Of a stretch of DNA of 64,000 nucleotides, positions 15,872-62,969 are shown one piece after another. A program made the position numbers and the translations under genes. The first letter of the stretch is position 1; every line of letters begins with the position of its first letter. The DNA comes from Candidatus Binatia bacterium (GTDB lineage: Bacteria > Desulfobacterota > Binatia > Bin18), in assembly GCA_963666315.2 (NCBI GenBank), contig CAXXHG010000014.1:128001-192000 (forward strand). The letters run 5' to 3'. The notes beneath the pieces were generated by a model. That model made no database searches, was not told the origin of the DNA, and worked only from the letters and a program-made list of their open reading frames with translations.

Positions 15872-17716
15872 CTAGGAACGGCCCCTTGCGCGCCCGAGCG
15901 CTTCCGTCAGGAGGGGTACCACCTGTGCGTAGTCTCCAACTATGCCCAGATCGGCCGTCTTAAAAATCGGCGCTTTGGCTTTGGTATTAATTGCGACTAT
16001 GGTCCCCGCTTTGCGGAGTCCGACGGTGTGTTCAAAGGCGCCGCGTATGCCAATTGCAAAATAGAGCTTGGGCGCAATCGCCCGCCCAGTAAGGCCTACC
16101 TGGTGTTGCCGAGGCAACCAGCCTAAGTCAGAGATATCCCGCGTCGAGGCCAGTGGGGCTCCACCCAACACCTCTGCCAGTTCTTCAATCATGGGCAGAT
16201 TCTCCGGCCCGCCCATTCCCTTCCCCACTCCGATAGCGATTTCCGCTGAGTCGAGCGCCGCCGCTTTCGCTGCGTCAGCACCTGTTTGTGACACGAGCTT
16301 CACCCGGCTGTGTACGGCGGCATCAAGTGTGAGCATTTCGATCCGCGCCTGGCGGCTCGGATCGGGTCGGGCCTTGATCAGCATGCCCGGACGGACGGTT
16401 GCCATTTCGGGCGTCGTCTTGGACAAAACCGGTGCAACAATATTACCGCCAAAAGCAGGTTTGAGCTGTAAGAGCTGGCCTTGGTCGTTGACCTCAAGAC
16501 CAACACAATCGCCGGTGAGTCCCAACCCAAGCCGGGCGGCAACACGTGGGGCGAGGTCGCGGCCAACCGCGGTTGAGCCGAGCAGGACGACCTTCGGCTT
16601 GTGGTTTTGAATCGCGTCGGTCAAGACCGCCGTATACAGCTCGGTATCATACGAGGCCAATCGCACGTTGTCGGCGCGGTACATAACGTCCACCCCGTGA
16701 ATTGCTAGGGTAGCGATATGCGCATCCACTCCACTGCCGATCAAAACTGCGCCGACTTCTCCGCCGTAGTGCGCCGCCAGCTCGACGGCTTTGCCTAAAA
16801 GCTCAAGACTCACCGGTCGCAAAGCATCCCCGAGTATCTCGGCAACAACCCATACCGCCTTGCCCGGCTCGGGCGTCCCTGTTCGTTGCCGCCCTGCGAC
16901 AGCATCCCCATCACCCGCCCACGTTCCGAACAGACCACGTTCTAAGAGAACCTGGACCACCGTGTCAACTTGTTCTGATAGTTCCCCTTCAAGCACGCGG
17001 CCCTCACGGCTGTCCTCAACTGTTTGAACAGATTCGACCCACGTCGGCGAACCCGCCGCTCCGAATTGGGACAAGTCGGACGACAGGTCGCCGGCCGTGA
17101 CGGTTTGAATAGGGTGCTCCTTAGCCGCTTCTCGCTCAGCTCTCTTGGGGAACCGCTCCGGAGCCAGATCCTCTGTGGCCGAAATGAGCGCGGGCAGAGG
17201 GCATTCCAGCATGTCAAAACCACTATCCGTCTCGCGCTCAACCGTAATCGTTTTGCCATCATCGTTGAGGGTCAATTTCCCGACACCCGTGACCTGGGGA
17301 ATATTCAGCATTTCAGCAATTTCCGGTCCCACCTGGCCGGTTTCCGCATCCGTGCTATGGCGCCCACATAAAATGAGATCATAGCCTTCTTTTTCGCTTG
17401 CGAGTGCTAAAGCACGCGCGGTCGCAAGCGTGTCTGCCCCGGCAAATGCCCGGTCCGTGAGGTGCACCACCCGGTCCGCACCGAGGGCCAAACAGTGCCG
17501 CAGAGCCTCTTCAGCTTGCGGCGGCCCCATGGTCAGGGCGACGACTTCTCCGCCATGCGTCTCGCGCAGTTCGAGCGCTTTCAGCAACCCACGTACATCA
17601 AACGAACTGACCTCCGACGGCACCCCCTCACGCTGGAGCGTTTTCGTCTCGGGGTCGAGCTTCATGGCCGAAACTACCGGCACTTGCTTCACCAACACAA
17701 TTATTTTCATAGACAC
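15872..17716 (-). CDS. Fused electron transfer flavoprotein beta-alpha subunits
   Basis: N-terminal VLVKQVP, TMGP, GADTLAT, DAETGQVG (beta); C-terminal GLTGDC, PAFGGN, QVGLTG, GIRGAFEH (alpha). Confidence 0.93.
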   Translation of the reverse strand: MSMKIIVLVKQVPVVSAMKLDPETKTLQREGVPSEVSSFDVRGLLKALELRETHGGEVVALTMGPPQAEEALRHCLALGADRVVHLTDRAFAGADTLATARALALASEKEGYDLILCGRHSTDAETGQVGPEIAEMLNIPQVTGVGKLTLNDDGKTITVERETDSGFDMLECPLPALISATEDLAPERFPKRAEREAAKEHPIQTVTAGDLSSDLSQFGAAGSPTWVESVQTVEDSREGRVLEGELSEQVDTVVQVLLERGLFGTWAGDGDAVAGRQRTGTPEPGKAVWVVAEILGDALRPVSLELLGKAVELAAHYGGEVGAVLIGSGVDAHIATLAIHGVDVMYRADNVRLASYDTELYTAVLTDAIQNHKPKVVLLGSTAVGRDLAPRVAARLGLGLTGDCVGLEVNDQGQLLQLKPAFGGNIVAPVLSKTTPEMATVRPGMLIKARPDPSRQARIEMLTLDAAVHSRVKLVSQTGADAAKAAALDSAEIAIGVGKGMGGPENLPMIEELAEVLGGAPLASTRDISDLGWLPRQHQVGLTGRAIAPKLYFAIGIRGAFEHTVGLRKAGTIVAINTKAKAPIFKTADLGIVGDYAQVVPLLTEALGRARGRS

Positions 17717-23272: not shown

Positions 23273-24487
23273 ATGTCGCTGAATGTCTTTTTGATGACGC
23301 TGCGGGTCGCCTTTCGTTCGACGCTGATCATGCTGGGCATAGTCTTCGGCGTCGCTGCTGTGATCGCCATGGTTGCCATCAGTCAAGGCGCCGACGCGTT
23401 CATACAGGACCGCATTCAAAGTCTGGGGACGAATATCGTTGTCGTCCGGCCTGGTTCAACAGTCATGCGAGGGGCACGATCCGGGGATGGCAGCGCCGCC
23501 TCGCTCACCGTTTCAGACGCCCGAGCGATCGCTCGCGAATGCCCGTCTGTCGCAGCGGTCACCTATATTAAGCGACGTAAGATGCAAGTTGTTGCCGGAC
23601 GCGAAAACTGGAGCACCGATGTGCAAGGCGTCAATGTCGATTATCTATACGTCCGTGCTTGGCCCCTTGCGGAAGGTCGTTTTTTTACGCCCCAAGAAGA
23701 ACGGACCGCTGCCCGGGTATGCGTACTTGGCGCAACCGTGGTCAAAAATCTGTTTGCCTTGGGCCAGAATCCTATTGGCGCGTCTATTCGTATCCAGGAT
23801 ATGCCGTGTCGGATCATCGGCCTCTTGTCTACAAAAGGCCAGACCGGCCGGGGGTCGGATCAAAACGATACGATCATTGTGCCTTTTTCTACTGCAGAGC
23901 GAAAACTCATTGGAGCGGAAATCCTTGGAGTTGTGGATTACATGATGGTCTCCGCTCGCAGCGCAACCCAGACTATGGAGACTGAAGACGAAATTCGCAG
24001 CCTGATCGGGGCTCGTCACCATCTGCGAGCCAAGCAGGACGATGACTTCCGTGTGCGCAATCTCCAAGAGATTGCGGATGCCTCGGCCAATGCGAGCCAA
24101 GTCATGACCATCCTGCTCGCGTCAGTGGCTTCAATCGCCCTGCTCGTCGGCGGTATCGGCATTATGAATATCCTCTTGGTGTCCGTGACCGAACGGACCA
24201 GGGAAATCGAGATTCGCATGGCCGTTGGGGCCAAGGCCAAGCACATCTTGTTACAGTTCTTAGTAGAATCGGCAACGCTCAGCCTGTTGGGCGGCGTGTT
24301 CGGCATCCTGCTGGGTGTGGCCAGCGCTCAACTTGTCGCCTCAGTCGCACACTGGCCCAGCCTCTTATCCCCTGTCACCATAGTCGGCTCATTTGTTTGC
24401 TCGGGTGTGGTCGGTATTCTGTTCGGCTATTATCCGGCCTATAAAGCCTCTCGGCTCGATCCGATTGAGGCCTTACGTTATGAATAG
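23273..24487 (+). CDS. MacB/FtsX-type ABC transporter permease (orphan)
   Basis: LGIVFGVAAVIAM, LLVGGIGIMNI, VTERTREI, RLDPIEALRYE. Confidence 0.9.
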   Translation: MSLNVFLMTLRVAFRSTLIMLGIVFGVAAVIAMVAISQGADAFIQDRIQSLGTNIVVVRPGSTVMRGARSGDGSAASLTVSDARAIARECPSVAAVTYIKRRKMQVVAGRENWSTDVQGVNVDYLYVRAWPLAEGRFFTPQEERTAARVCVLGATVVKNLFALGQNPIGASIRIQDMPCRIIGLLSTKGQTGRGSDQNDTIIVPFSTAERKLIGAEILGVVDYMMVSARSATQTMETEDEIRSLIGARHHLRAKQDDDFRVRNLQEIADASANASQVMTILLASVASIALLVGGIGIMNILLVSVTERTREIEIRMAVGAKAKHILLQFLVESATLSLLGGVFGILLGVASAQLVASVAHWPSLLSPVTIVGSFVCSGVVGILFGYYPAYKASRLDPIEALRYE

Positions 24488-25341
24488 CGGCCACAGTCGA
24501 TTGGTCGACATGAACGGAATCCGCCTGCATTACTTTGAGTGGGGAGAGGAAGCCAACCCGGCCCTTATTTTGCTCCACGGCGGCTCAGCCCACGCCCACT
24601 GGTGGGATCATATTGCGCCCAGCTTGGCCCGGACGTTCCGCGGTCTTGCGTTTGATCTGCGTGGCCACGGAGACAGCTCCTGGATTGAACCAGCCGCGTA
24701 TGAAATCCAGGACTATGTGGCTGACCTCGAAGCCGTCATCACAACCCTGCAGCTCGACTCACCCAGCCTCTTGGGCCACTCATTGGGTGGATTCATTGCG
24801 CTGAACTATGCGACCCGGCATGCGGCGAGTCTGCGCGCGTTCATTAAGTGTAGACATCGGCCCTCAGCTGCGGCAGAGCCGGTATATGCGTCTGCTGCGC
24901 ACCCTGCCGCCGCCGATTTATCAAGACGAGGCAGACTTGCATAATCGCTTTCGTCTTCTTCCCGCAGACACACAGGCGACTGCGGATCTCCTGCGCCACA
25001 TTGCGCACCACAGCGTGCAGCCTGGCGAGGCTGGCAACCTGCACCTCAAAGCAAATCGTGCGGCCATGATCCGTCAGCCGTGCGACCTCACCCCGCTCCT
25101 GCCCACTATCGTTTGCCCCACACTCTTCTTACGCGGCCAGAACAGCAGAAATCTCTCAGCAGAAAAATTGGCACAGATGCTACACGCCTGTCCGCAGGCC
25201 CAAGGCAGAGAAATCCCGGCTGCGGGCCATCATATTTTCTTAGACCAACCTTCCGCCTTTCTTGACATCGTGACCAATTTCCTCCACGAGAAAGGGACGG
25301 ACACAACGGCGAACGCACAGAGAGGACAAAACAATAATTGA
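24480..25341 (+). pseudogene. Alpha/beta hydrolase, frameshifted near 24845
   Basis: LLHGG, DLRGHG and GHSLGG in frame 1; VDIGP...AGHHIFLDQP in a second frame; one extra A in ATTAAGTGTAGAC. Confidence 0.85.
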
Positions 25342-34217: not shown

Positions 34218-34395
34218 GGCGTTATTCCTCCATAGCCATAGTCGGAAATGCCGCAGCTTCCTTAACCGAAAGTGTCATCGACAAGGGGTTTGGAATCCAC
34301 ACACGAAAACGCTACGCTGGGCCGATATTTTTCATGCACCTTGCTGGCTTCCATTCCGAGAGTCGATTACAATACATGACAAAAGGAGGCACTCC

Positions 34396-35217
34396 ATGGC
34401 GGACCAAGGCTATGTTCGACCGGAGATGTTGGCCGATAGCCAATGGCTGGCAGCCCATCTCCAGGACGACACTATTCGACTAGTCGATTGTGACAACCGT
34501 GAGGCATACCGACGCGCCCATATTCCTGGTGCGATTACCTTTCGTGGGCATCATTATTTGAAAGAAGAAGAAGAGGCTCTGCATATTATGGGCCCGGACC
34601 AATTTGCCCAGACCATGGGCGCGCTTGGGATCGACGCGGACAACCTCGTGGTTGCCTATGATGGCTTTAGCGGCCTGTATGCAACACGGCTCTGGTGGGC
34701 ACTCAATTATTACGGTCATACCAACGCTAAAGTGCTGAACGGGGGATGGGATACCTGGTTGGCCGAAGGCAGGCCAGTGACAAATGCGATCACTCGCCCG
34801 ACAATGGCGACTTTTACACCGCAGGTGCATGAGGACTTCATTGCCCGTTGGGAGCAGGTTCAGAACGCGACCGGCACCGATACTGTGCTCCTCGACACGC
34901 GTTCCGACGCGGAATGGAGGGGCGAAAACGATCGGGGCACTAAGCGCGGCGGGCGGGTTCCCGGCGCCGTCCATCTCGAATGGCTCAAATATGTTGATCC
35001 CAAGACGAAGCAGTTTAAGCCGGCGACAGAACTTCGTTCCATATTCGAGCAGGCCGGGGTCAGACCTGAATGTGAAGTCATCACGTATTGACAGGGCGGT
35101 ATCCGTGCGGCGCACGGACTTTTCACCCTGCGGCTACTTGGTTTTGACAAGGTCCGGAATTACGACGCCTCATGGGCGGAGTGGGGCAATCGAGAAGATT
35201 TGCCGATTGAGAAATAA
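34396..35217 (+). CDS. Tandem-rhodanese sulfurtransferase (SseA/TST-like), probable selenoprotein with UGA at 35089-35091
   Basis: HIPGA, LNGG, DTRS and GRVPGA motifs; [14 protein letters not shown]...[11 protein letters not shown] continues in frame to TAA 35217; AAGGAGG RBS. Confidence 0.85.
35102..35118 (+). promoter_or_regulatory. Putative bacterial SECIS hairpin
   Basis: TCCGTGC-GGC-GCACGGA perfect 7-bp stem with a G-containing loop, starting at the 11th nt after the UGA. Confidence 0.7.
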
Positions 35218-35250
35218 GCCAGTCGGCCTTTTTATAGGAATCTTTCAACG

Positions 35251-36138
35251 ATGAAACAGTATTGGATCTTGGTCTGTCTGGTTAGTCTTCTCCTCTTCTC
35301 ACTCTCGCCACTCTTACCATCCTTGCCACTTTTACCGTATGCTATCTACGCTGCTCAGCATCAAGTGGAGCCAGAGCCAAGGGGCTCGCTCATCGTTCGG
35401 ACCTCTACCGAAGAAGGGAAACAGGGGGATGCACAGGCCAGGATCTATACCACAGATCCCCAAACCCTGGTCAGCATGGCTCCTTTGGGCAGACCGATAT
35501 CACTTTCACCAGGAGCGTATCGGGTCGAACTCGATGTCCTGGGTGGAACGATATCGCGCGAGCGCGTACTCGTCAGAGCAGGCCGAACAAGCACTATCAT
35601 TATCAGCGAGGTAGCCGAACTCCAGGTAAACGTCCTGGACAAAAAAGGCCAAGATCTGGGTCTCGGCGTTGAAATCTATGATAACGTTTCAAAAGAGCTG
35701 CTCGGAGAATTCCTGAGTGGAGAACGCATCATGGCTCAGCCTGGAGTGGTTGACGTCAAGGTCGCAACGCCACCCCAGAGTCGCTGGTGGCGTGATATTG
35801 AACTCTACCGTGGAGGCTTACAAGAGCTGACTTTGCAGGAACGTGTGCGCGGCCAGCTCTGGGTCCATCCTCTCCTCGGCGGACGTGACGTGAGTCCGGT
35901 CACCCATGTCATTATCTATGCAGCAGGAACACAAAAAGAGATCGCCCGGAGTGAGCCTGGGAAAGAGCATCGTTTTGCGCTGGACACGGGCTCGTATGAT
36001 ATCTTTGTGACAAATCCGACAGGACAAGGCAAACCGTTCGTCCTTGAGCGCGCGGAAGTTCCAGATGAAAAAACGGTAGAAAAAGACGTTCGCCTAGACG
36101 CTGAACCGACACCGCCTTCGAAAACGCAAGCGCTGTAA
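35251..36138 (+). CDS. Secreted hypothetical protein with repeated beta-sandwich-like modules
   Basis: Hydrophobic N-terminus; recurring LxPGxYxV/I-type motifs (LSPGAYRV, QPGVVDV, LDTGSYDI). Confidence 0.65.
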   Translation: MKQYWILVCLVSLLLFSLSPLLPSLPLLPYAIYAAQHQVEPEPRGSLIVRTSTEEGKQGDAQARIYTTDPQTLVSMAPLGRPISLSPGAYRVELDVLGGTISRERVLVRAGRTSTIIISEVAELQVNVLDKKGQDLGLGVEIYDNVSKELLGEFLSGERIMAQPGVVDVKVATPPQSRWWRDIELYRGGLQELTLQERVRGQLWVHPLLGGRDVSPVTHVIIYAAGTQKEIARSEPGKEHRFALDTGSYDIFVTNPTGQGKPFVLERAEVPDEKTVEKDVRLDAEPTPPSKTQAL

Positions 36139-50522: not shown

Positions 50523-51634
50523 TTACATTCCTCTTGCTTCGCTTCCTCTCGTAGACGCGAAATACATCCCTGGGAGTTGGGCAACCGATCCTTTTAATTC
50601 TAACCCAAGCAGCACTTCAAGCACACGTGCGGTCTCAAGCCCACTCCCGGTAATTAATGTGTCAACGTGTAGCAGCTCTTCTTCAAACAGTCGAAACAGC
50701 ACCTCTTCGTCCGGCTCCAAAGGGACAACCGGTGCGAGGCTGAGTGCAATCTCGCTCAGTATATCATCAATATTTGCAACAAGTTTTGCGCCGGCCTTAA
50801 TAAGCCGGTGTGGACCACGGCTGCGGCTTGCCGTAATCGGACCAGGAACGGCAAACACCTCACGGTTCTGGTACAGCGCACACTGAGCCGTGATCAATGA
50901 TCCACTCTTTTCCGTTGCCTCCACAACAACCGTGCCGAGACTCATGCCACTAATGACCCGGTTCCGATAGGGGAAATTCCCGGCCTCGGGCCGACTACCG
51001 AGGGCAAACTCCGATACGACCGCTCCATTCTTCGCAATATGCTCTGCCAACGCTTTATGCTCACGTGGATACACTACGTCAAGCCCCGAGCCTAAAACAG
51101 CAATGGTCCGGCCGCCGGCCTCAAGCGTTGCCTGATGAGCCTCGGCATCAATACCACGCGCCATCCCGCTCACGACGCTGATCCTCCCGGCTGCAAGTTC
51201 CTGGGTAAGCTCGCGTGCCACCCCGCGTCCATAGGCACTGGCCATCCGGGCGCCCACAATGGCCATTGATACCCCGTCTTCCAGAACAAAGCTCCCCTGC
51301 ACATAGAGAGAAGGGGCGGGTCATGGATCTGCTTGAGCCTGTCCGGATATTCGTCGTCTGTTCGTGTGACCAAACGCGCCCCAACCTGCTTCAGCCTGTC
51401 GAGTTCAGCCTCAACGTCCGCCCATTGGTCGAATGCCACAATGATTTGCGCAATACGTGGGCTGACACCAGTTTCTATCAGCGCAGCTGTGGAGGCGTTC
51501 AGGACGACCTGGGGTGAAGTAAAATTCTCCAGCAATTGACCATACGTAACATTTCCGACACCGTGTACCATGCGGAGTGTGATCCAGTAGCTCCATTGTG
51601 TCTGGGGATCGCGGTTATCCGCTGGGCCTTGCAT
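50523..51634 (-). pseudogene. dprA: DNA-processing protein DprA, frameshifted near 51310
   Basis: GVGNV...YPDRLKQIHDPP in one frame; YVQG...AIVGAR, SGMARGID, FPYRNRVIS in the next; usual dprA-topA-trmFO order. Confidence 0.9.
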
Positions 51635-62041: not shown

Positions 62042-62635
62042 CTATAGCAGCAAGTTCACGAGGTTCAACTTTGTAAAGATCACCCCCATAGACTCGTCCG
62101 CCTTCCCGCAAGGCTGGATCGCGAGAGTGTAAATCGTAATAGTTCGCAACTTCGTGATTCCGTAATAATTTGCAGCTTTTTTCAGCTGGGCCATACGATA
62201 GTCAATCTGTCCATGATTTTCATGGCGTTCCTAAATTTCATCATATTCGCCTCACATCTTGTAATACAGGTCTTGATCAGTATCTCGGATATCTGGAAAG
62301 ATTTTGCCAATTAACTGATTAATTTCCAGCGCACAGGAGTACATCCGAACGGCTCTCTCTGAGAACCGACTGACATTAAGAAGTCCTGCGATGATAGTAA
62401 TTGTCAGTCCGGAGATGATCTGGATGAGAGCAAGAGTTGGCTGTGAGAGTGCAATCTGAATACTGAGAATATCGATCAGTTGGTATCCAACGATACCAAC
62501 TGAGACGAGGGAAACTGTCCATAAAGATAAGTAATGGTCCTTTTCGAGTCGTAGTTGTGCTTCAAATCGGGCGCACGCTGTAACAGTCATTTTACGGTAG
62601 AGATTTTGAAGAGGAGTCTCAACTTCTGCCCGCAT
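62042..62635 (-). pseudogene. SLATT-domain (SLATT_5-like) 2TM effector with two in-frame stops
   Basis: ARFEAQLRL, two TM helices, ERAVRMYSCALEINQL, then KM*GEYDEI*ERHENHGQIDY (TGA 62252-54, TAG 62231-33); AT-richer than its neighbours; 3' limit approximate. Confidence 0.65.
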
Positions 62636-62969
62636 TCTTATATACCCTTCCCAAAACAGCGTAAAGCATATTCTAATTAAAATATTATGGAAGATGCTAC
62701 TGCAACCTTCTCTATCCTTATTCAGTGCAATCATATCGCAAAACAGCGAAATTGATAATACTCAAGCCGTTTTATCTGAATGGTGGAGCGGAGCTTTTCG
62801 TAACTGGAGAAATGCCGGCGTTTGTGGAAGAACGACGAGAGACACTTGGACACCAGCCTGCAAATGGCCGTTCTCGCTTTTACCGTCCTCCTGCTCAAAA
62901 GATTCAGAACAGTTTCTCAGCTCAGCTCCGAGGAGGGGAATTTAGCAATCTCAACAAACAGCATTTTGG

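Follow-up and report, generated by a model that had tools for sequence, protein, structure and literature searches.

The 64,000-nt stretch of the Candidatus Binatia bacterium contig CAXXHG010000014.1 analyzed here (hereafter, the window) contains, at positions 34396 to 35217 of the forward strand, a gene for a tandem-rhodanese sulfurtransferase with an in-frame TGA codon exactly at the place of the catalytic cysteine (Cys). The comparative data indicate that this UGA is very probably recoded as selenocysteine (Sec), which would serve as the catalytic residue, by means of a selenocysteine insertion sequence (SECIS) located immediately downstream within the coding region. The reading as a genuine selenoprotein gene, belonging to an already predicted family, is strongly supported by comparison of the homologous sequences. 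Sec as the catalytic residue had been proposed in an earlier note on this DNA; the proposal is now backed by TGA in 79 of 80 related loci, by Cys homologues, by a downstream frame under selection and by synonymous sites in the hairpin that are frozen only in the TGA forms.

The UGA codon and the read-through protein

The gene and its parts are located as follows.

34384..34389, + strand: Shine-Dalgarno-like AGGAGG, 6 nt upstream of the ATG at 34396 (read from the sequence)
34396..35217, + strand: predicted full selenoprotein coding sequence of the tandem-rhodanese sulfurtransferase, 273 codons (Sec at codon 232) plus TAA (translation, Pfam, PDB alignment, tblastn, AlphaFold2)
34441..34764, + strand: N-terminal rhodanese domain, residues 16-123, the best Pfam stretch
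34843..35205, + strand: C-terminal catalytic rhodanese domain, approximately residues 150-270, spanning the TGA (alignment to 1uar_A and 3hzu_A; AlphaFold2 model)
35089..35091, + strand: UGA predicted to be read as Sec (U232), with which the active-site loop U-Q-G-G-I-R begins (TGA here and at 79 of 80 loci, TGC in locus L080, Cys in 45 of 114 classified protein homologues, alignment to the catalytic Cys)

Codon 232 is the TGA at 35089-35091 (+ strand), directly following ...PECEVITY in the translated frame, and past it the same frame remains open for 41 codons, up to the TAA at 35215-35217. The TGA at the position of the catalytic Cys, the 41-codon extension and a perfect 7-bp hairpin beginning at the 11th nucleotide past the TGA had all been noticed before, and each was found again in the sequence.

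The read-through protein contains two stretches of the Pfam Rhodanese family (PF00581, E 2.1e-33), and its residues 5-273 align with solved tandem rhodaneses (1uar_A, E 1.9e-44; 3hzu_A, E 2.7e-39), with residue 232 placed in the C-terminal domain, opposite the catalytic Cys of both structures. Taken together, Pfam, full-length alignments to 1uar_A, 3hzu_A and 1e0c_A, and the AlphaFold2 model indicate a pair of rhodanese domains, of which the C-terminal domain holds the catalytic residue; by analogy with the solved tandem rhodaneses, the N-terminal domain is presumed to be non-catalytic. At the related loci, the tblastn matches cover residues 1-273.

The AlphaFold2 model of the read-through protein (predicted local distance difference test score 89.5, predicted template modelling score 0.91) consists, in this region, of strand 228-231, loop 232-235, helix 236-247, strand 253-256 and helix 259-265, so that residue 232 lies at the junction of a strand and a helix. 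In this model, the 41 residues that follow the TGA contribute the active-site loop, two helices and one strand; because they do so, a product ending at the TGA would miss both the catalytic residue and a part of the fold.

With respect to more specific function, the protein scores 147.2 bits against the NCBIfam equivalog model of 3-mercaptopyruvate sulfurtransferase SseA (NF008557), the cut-off of which is 250 bits, and by this score it is a relative of that equivalog that falls outside its membership. Because the score lies below the cut-off, we assign no preference for thiosulfate or 3-mercaptopyruvate as the substrate. The final Arg of the U-Q-G-G-I-R loop is shared with the C-R-x-x-E-R loops of 1UAR and 3HZU, and in this residue the loop sequence resembles the thiosulfate sulfurtransferase type.

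Conservation of the codon, the downstream frame and the hairpin

Two samples of relatives were analyzed. The protein search yielded 4483 relatives, the best 120 of which were listed, making 121 proteins together with that of the window; 114 of the 121 were classified by pattern, and the seven unclassified ones (P0075, P0080, P0089, P0097, P0113, P0115 and P0119) were dropped. In the search of contigs from species-representative genomes, 550 stretches matched, 464 of these encode relatives, and the best 80 were kept as loci L001-L080. The loci span 49-93% protein identity to the window protein, L001 being the closest (93%). According to the record titles, which are the only source of these labels, they come from Candidatus Binatia, one Methylomirabilota, and Dehalococcoidia, Chloroflexota or SAR202; a few are titled 'uncultured Enterobacteriaceae bacterium' or 'Deltaproteobacteria', and these fall with the Binatia-type clade in both sequence and synteny. 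The relatives place the window's organism within Candidatus Binatia or close to it.

The catalytic codon is TGA in 79 of these best 80 of 464 loci and TGC in the remaining one, L080, which is titled SAR202 and shows 49% identity. At the TGA loci, the TGA is followed in frame by QGGIRAAHG...NYD.S..EW.NR... and then by a stop at the homologous place; thus, an in-frame UGA where homologues carry Cys is accompanied by conservation of both the UGA and the downstream frame among orthologues. Among the classified proteins (from the best 120 of 4483, plus the window), 69 of 114, the window included, end exactly at (I/V/T)TY, at about 230-235 amino acids, and 45 are full length with Cys at the catalytic position. 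All seven database-derived full-length proteins of the alignment A1 likewise carry Cys at the aligned column. A tree restricted to the N-terminal part requires at least five changes between Sec and Cys, and in it the Cys forms P0003, P0004 and P0006 are nested in a clade of truncated, presumably Sec, forms. The alternation of TGA and Cys among orthologues, as well as the conservation of the hairpin, had been named before as a check on the Sec proposal, and the outcome agrees with it: TGA in 79 of 80, TGC in 1 of 80, with the hairpin core kept in the TGA forms and lost in L080.

Two TGA-bearing paralogues, with 74% and 56% identity to the window protein, occur in one Binatia metagenome-assembled genome (L026 and L039, JBFWXH01), and eight chromosomes titled Binatia (L052, L054, L061, L062, L064, L065, L066 and L069) harbor a Chloroflexota-type copy, the eight forming one well-supported clade nested among Chloroflexota sequences. 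These copies suggest paralogy or transfer between phyla, the taxonomic labels being those of the record titles only.

The region downstream of the TGA evolves as a protein-coding sequence. Of the 32 codons 242-273, 16 (50%) encode one and the same residue in 70 or more of the TGA-bearing sequences (80 in all, the 79 loci and the window), compared to 37% of the 230 upstream codons, and all 15 degenerate codons among these 16 use at least two synonymous codons; the invariant R254 is encoded by four codons and L245 by six. Conserved residues combined with synonymous variation imply that this region is translated and is subject to purifying selection.

The codons of the active-site loop and helix that lie just before this region show the opposite pattern at their synonymous sites. 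Codons 236-240 read ATC CGT GCG GCG CAC without any change in 79 of the 80 sequences with TGA, the exception being L078, with CGC in place of CGT. Among 101 conserved degenerate codon columns, codon entropy is under 0.5 bit in only seven, compared with a median of 1.41 bit for the other 91; six of the seven, ATC236 (80/80), CGT237 (79/80), GCG238 (80/80), GCG239 (80/80), CAC240 (80/80) and the closing GGA241 (74/80), build the hairpin, and the seventh, TAT231 (80/80), precedes the TGA. The third position of Ala238, which is the first nucleotide of the apical loop, is G in 80 of 80. The Cys form in L080 encodes the same I-R-A-A-H but reads ATA CGG GCA GCA CAT GTC and lacks the hairpin there (-8.4 kcal/mol, z -1.2, in this single DNA of a Cys form, vs -19.5 kcal/mol, z -3.3, in the window).

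Apart from the hairpin, all 80 TGA-bearing sequences have C immediately 3' of the UGA, and TAC never occurs as the preceding codon (window positions 35086-35094 and the aligned columns). This conservation suggests selection on the immediate context of the UGA in addition to that on the hairpin.

The structure concerned is the following.

35092..35130, + strand: bacterial SECIS-like stem-loop inside the coding sequence, lower stem CAGGG.GG / UC.CCCUG plus the upper hairpin
35102..35118, + strand: putative upper SECIS hairpin, 7 bp UCCGUGC/GCACGGA, apical loop GGC at 35109-35111

The + strand of the window contains 34 perfect hairpins of at least 7 bp (loop 3-8 nt) in 64 kb, so that chance would place 0.014 of them in a 27-nt interval, and among the 71 TGA codons that end frames of at least 100 codons in the window, the rhodanese TGA is the only one with such a hairpin at +4 to +31 (TCCGTGC/GGC/GCACGGA). 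The 19-nt hairpin has a folding energy of -10.5 kcal/mol (z -2.9) and the 40-nt element at 35092-35131 one of -19.5 kcal/mol (z -3.3), with 0 of 200 shuffled sequences as good in either case; the fold of a 62-nt piece taken alone is not significant (z -1.3, 20 of 200 shuffles). Within the window data alone, the hairpin is thus unusual and not decisive. On every count, the element fits the bacterial SECIS model given in the legend to Fig. 2 of PMC13188914 (MFE, minimum free energy):

Apical loop: model 3-9 nt; here GGC (3 nt)
Upper stem: model 4-16 bp; here 7 bp
G in the first two loop positions: model, required; here, yes
Spacing from UGA to loop: model 16-37 nt; here 17 nt
MFE: model at most -7.5 kcal/mol; here -10.5 (hairpin) and -19.5 (40 nt)

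The lower stem is also largely maintained, with pairing in 83% of the cells across 68 distinct sequences. In six of the seven upper-stem pairs, one partner is a nucleotide dictated by the residues I-R-A-A-H-G and the other is a synonymous third position; in the seventh (G19-C25), both partners are fixed. Because the pairs tie protein-fixed nucleotides to synonymous sites, compensatory double changes are barely available, and the expected signature of an RNA requirement is therefore frozen synonymous sites: the codons for the active-site loop and helix double as the hairpin, and the requirement for the RNA structure freezes the synonymous sites of these codons.

Alternative explanations and the Sec machinery

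Several results weigh against recoding of UGA232 as Sec. The covariation test on 80 sequences was not significant, as the upper stem never varies, and the two lower-stem pairs with double changes yield a value reached by 200 of 500 shuffles. Rfam returned nothing at gathering thresholds over the window and, at E <= 10, three chance-level matches only (E >= 4.7) in 34950-35300. The difference in the hairpin between the Cys and TGA forms comes from one Cys-form DNA, that of L080. The machinery itself was sought in the 64-kb window and the locus flanks, not in the rest of the genome, and ARAGORN found no tRNA in the window and no tRNA-Sec in L001-L040, where a single tRNA-Arg was detected; none of the 59 window open reading frames (ORFs) scanned with Pfam belongs to the SelA, SelB or SelD families, and patterns for the SelB G1 and SelD N-terminal motifs had no match in six frames of the window and the 80 loci. 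A crude scan for Sec/Cys pairs, in which 6451 TGA-centred windows were compared with all frames of the window and the 80 loci, revealed no second credible selenoprotein. Finally, the family itself is a predicted one, the 2022 review listing the Sec-containing COG2897 sulfurtransferase as 'Predicted' (PMC9312934). We infer that SelA, SelB, SelD and tRNA-Sec are encoded elsewhere in the genome.

The same Sec/Cys scan did recover the rhodanese, with TGA in up to 79 other sequences and one Cys. The window holds 102 candidates for TGA read-through, of which 27 lie outside Pfam-positive genes, and of 35 further Sec/Cys-pair candidates inspected, 34 looked like wrong-frame translations. In L013, a TGA (L013:2127-2129) replaces the peroxide-sensing Cys of an OxyR-like LysR gene (L013:1518-2411, 'LLLDDGH*LRDQ'), with TGT at that codon in the orthologues in L007, L011, L012 and L015. 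Its hairpin is no stronger than those of the Cys forms (-15.3 vs -15.7 to -22.7 kcal/mol), and being also a singleton, in contrast to the rhodanese TGA, it was rejected as a selenoprotein and probably reflects a nonsense change or an error in the sequence.

A comparable origin of the rhodanese TGA, through a nonsense mutation from TGC or TGT or a sequencing error that would cut the enzyme at residue 231, had been left open in the earlier note, on the ground that the window has many pseudogenes. One nucleotide change would suffice, the OxyR-like gene of L013 is a real example, and there are two possible frameshifted genes in the window (24393-25341 and 50523-51634); however, the claim of many pseudogenes was not substantiated beyond these two, which have no bearing on the rhodanese gene. 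The comparative data contradict the mutation: 79 of 80 loci retain the TGA, at protein identities as low as about 50%, and 41 downstream codons that are in frame and conserved at the protein level with synonymous variation, together with a nucleotide-invariant hairpin, are not expected of a decaying tail. A nonsense mutation could not be maintained across such divergence; we therefore consider a pseudogene excluded and give it practically no credence. A functional 231-residue product, with the hairpin acting as a terminator, an attenuator or a regulator of the downstream gene, would match the public annotation, which calls an ORF of 231-232 amino acids, and the presence of a G+C-rich hairpin 3' of a stop codon. 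Such a product, however, would stop short of the catalytic residue and would have neither the active-site loop nor four of the domain's secondary-structure elements; the hairpin is not followed by a T run, the sequence there being CTTTTCACCC; and past the TGA the protein stays conserved in frame for 41 codons, up to a stop that is itself conserved. This explanation appears very improbable.

A closer competitor, improbable as well although somewhat less so, is translation of the UGA as a residue other than Sec, whether through near-cognate suppression (by Cys, Trp or Arg) aided by the hairpin, through insertion of Cys by the Sec pathway at low selenium, or through lineage-wide reassignment of UGA. 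The sequences indicate that the codon is translated and not which residue is inserted, the window and the flanks searched contain no Sec machinery, and C follows the UGA in all 80 sequences, UGA followed by C being a weak termination context. Against this, the TGA occupies the very position of the catalytic Cys, at which no residue other than Cys or Sec should sustain activity, and the only codons found in its place are those for Cys; moreover, the hairpin fits the SelB-type SECIS consensus, including the invariant G at a synonymous site that forms the first loop position. Reassignment is contradicted by the use of TGA as an ordinary stop, namely, in 5 of 41 Pfam-positive ORFs of the window and in 142 of 469 ORFs of at least 250 amino acids in L001-L040; because TGA serves as the stop of ordinary genes both here and in the relatives, UGA is not reassigned in these organisms. 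Stop codon usage differs between the samples. Among ORFs of at least 250 amino acids, the window is TAG-rich and TGA-poor (19 TAG, 12 TAA, 5 TGA), L001-L040 show 171 TAG, 156 TAA and 142 TGA, and L041-L080 show 306 TGA, 218 TAG and 85 TAA.

Recoding of UGA232 as Sec implies the following mechanism. The product would be a cytoplasmic two-domain (SseA/TST-type, where TST is thiosulfate sulfurtransferase) rhodanese with Sec as the catalytic residue. When the ribosome reaches UGA232, SelB carrying Sec-tRNA(Sec) would bind the apical hairpin at 35102-35118, recognizing a stem-loop whose GGC apical loop lies 17 nt from the UGA on a 7-bp G+C-rich stem. Sec would then be inserted and 41 more codons translated, completing the catalytic domain with the rest of the U-Q-G-G-I-R loop, the next helix and the last strand and helix. 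These two steps, SelB binding and Sec insertion, are supported indirectly, by the pattern of conservation. By analogy with the Cys persulfide of rhodaneses, the selenolate would presumably take up sulfane sulfur (or selenium) as an Se-S (or Se-Se) adduct and hand it to an acceptor.

A broader scenario can be envisaged, which as a whole we regard as unlikely. Under it, the Sec form would be the standard state across Candidatus Binatia and SAR202-type Chloroflexota, a 'protein-locked' SECIS (core codons 236-240) would let the gene move between phyla with a working SECIS, and the selenolate could serve selenium trafficking, toward SelD, rather than plain thiosulfate detoxification. Such passage across phyla would be feasible because the hairpin is built from active-site codons and its core is identical in 79 of 80 sequences at about 50% identity.

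Genomic setting and known relatives

The window is an ordinary chromosomal region that encodes, among others, methionyl- and arginyl-tRNA synthetases, TopA, FtsH, UvrD and an electron transfer flavoprotein (ETF). Directly downstream of the sulfurtransferase lies one further gene.

35251..36138, + strand: ORF of 295 amino acids with a hydrophobic, signal-peptide-like N-terminus, beginning 33 nt past the TAA; no Pfam match

This ORF directly follows the gene at 30 loci, all among L001-L040 (tblastn; 50-91% identity), and it may be linked to the sulfurtransferase. In the Binatia-type clade, the gene is located between a luciferase-like monooxygenase and the 295-aa ORF, and the Chloroflexota-type loci have other, unrelated neighbours. 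Because the neighbours are conserved only within the Binatia-type clade, the context points to no particular pathway.

Elsewhere in the window, an alpha/beta hydrolase gene is possibly frameshifted at 24393-25341 (+ strand; ORFs 24393-24944 and 24808-25341), as is dprA at 50523-51634 (- strand), where the Pfam match starts from profile position 44 in ORF 50523-51302, which overlaps the upstream ORF 51170-51634; these could be either true pseudogenes or assembly indel errors. A single ORF of 614 amino acids at 15872-17716 (- strand) contains two ETF-domain stretches and an ETF-alpha domain that binds flavin adenine dinucleotide, which suggests a fused EtfB-EtfA gene. Near the window end, a 160-aa ORF at 62252-62734 (- strand) matches the SLATT_5 domain (SMODS and SLOG-associating 2TM effector, E 4e-18) and is possibly a component of a defence system.

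The implications of the present analysis primarily concern annotation. As the earlier note anticipated, automated annotation truncates the gene: 68 of the best 120 listed homologues end at ...TY, and the NCBI records looked up (e.g. MGH7962920.1 and MGE0820563.1) present Binatia genes as a 232-aa 'sulfurtransferase'. The TGA-bearing relatives accordingly stand in the databases as catalytically dead fragments of 230-235 amino acids, and metabolic reconstructions of Binatia and SAR202 would therefore miss an active selenoenzyme and, by implication, a selenium dependence. Furthermore, 80 TGA forms with a nucleotide-invariant hairpin, set against one Cys form without it, provide a clean example of a coding-region SECIS that limits synonymous sites, and the data set shows why covariation tests fail on protein-locked SECIS elements. 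General knowledge of selenoproteins is not changed; the value lies in the corrected annotation and in this example.

That Sec-containing sulfurtransferases occur in bacteria, as the earlier note stated, is borne out by several publications (PMC1088965, PMC1976440, PMC9312934, PMC13188914). In the Sargasso Sea selenoproteome, a Sec-containing 'rhodanese-related sulfurtransferase' of COG2897 (SseA) was represented by three sequences, with a SECIS presented in Fig. 3 (Zhang, Fomenko and Gladyshev 2005, PMC1088965); the same family was found in the Global Ocean Sampling data (PMC2398784); and three selenoproteins and four Cys homologues of 'Sulfurtransferase COG2897' were reported from Olavius symbionts (PMC1976440). 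In the 2026 review, the Sec sulfurtransferase of 'form 4' has the motif UxxG (PMC13188914). The window gene shares with this family predicted Sec at the place of the catalytic Cys, the UxxG motif (U-Q-G-G here), a stem-loop with a G in a small apical loop after the UGA and many Cys homologues. It is likely orthologous to the published representatives AACY01016424, MQG53192.1 and MCY3690685.1, as judged by motif and domain. The difference lies in the hosts, which here are titled Candidatus Binatia, Methylomirabilota and Dehalococcoidia. The strings 'Binat', 'Dehalococc' and 'SAR202' are absent from the text of the 2026 review (PMC13188914), and the literature on 'Binat' or 'SAR202' with 'selenocysteine' contained, in the parts available, nothing on selenoproteins of these groups; the one Binatia paper examined cites selenocysteine in its references only. 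A SAR202-related paper reports SelA and SelB COGs from sponge-symbiont bins of various phyla and names no selenoprotein. Thus, the kind of protein has been known since 2005, and the host lineage and the scale appear to be absent from print.

Comparison with Cys-containing tandem rhodaneses, namely, those of Thermus thermophilus (1UAR), Mycobacterium tuberculosis (SseA, 3HZU), Azotobacter vinelandii (RhdA, 1E0C) and bovine rhodanese (1RHD), reveals the same two-domain organization, with the catalytic position at a strand-loop-helix junction, and the bacterial structures in the PDB align over the whole length (E 1.9e-44 to 1.6e-37). The differences are the predicted Sec and the loop, which is U-Q-G-G-I-R as opposed to C-R-I-(A/G)-E-R in 1UAR and 3HZU. 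Single-domain rhodanese selenoproteins (NCBIfam NF041203, rhodanese_LYCAU, motif CxU; COG0607 forms) are similar in the rhodanese fold and in having Sec in the active-site loop, but they differ in having one domain and another Sec motif, and the window protein attains only 25.9 bits against the NF041203 cut-off of 115.

With respect to the RNA signal, the closest point of reference is the SECIS of Escherichia coli fdhF and fdnG, a SelB-binding hairpin located directly 3' of the UGA. The element described here is likewise a coding-region stem-loop just past the UGA with a G in the apical loop. However, it shows no sequence similarity to the fdhF and fdnG elements and presents a GGC triloop on a perfect 7-bp stem, with no evident bulged U.

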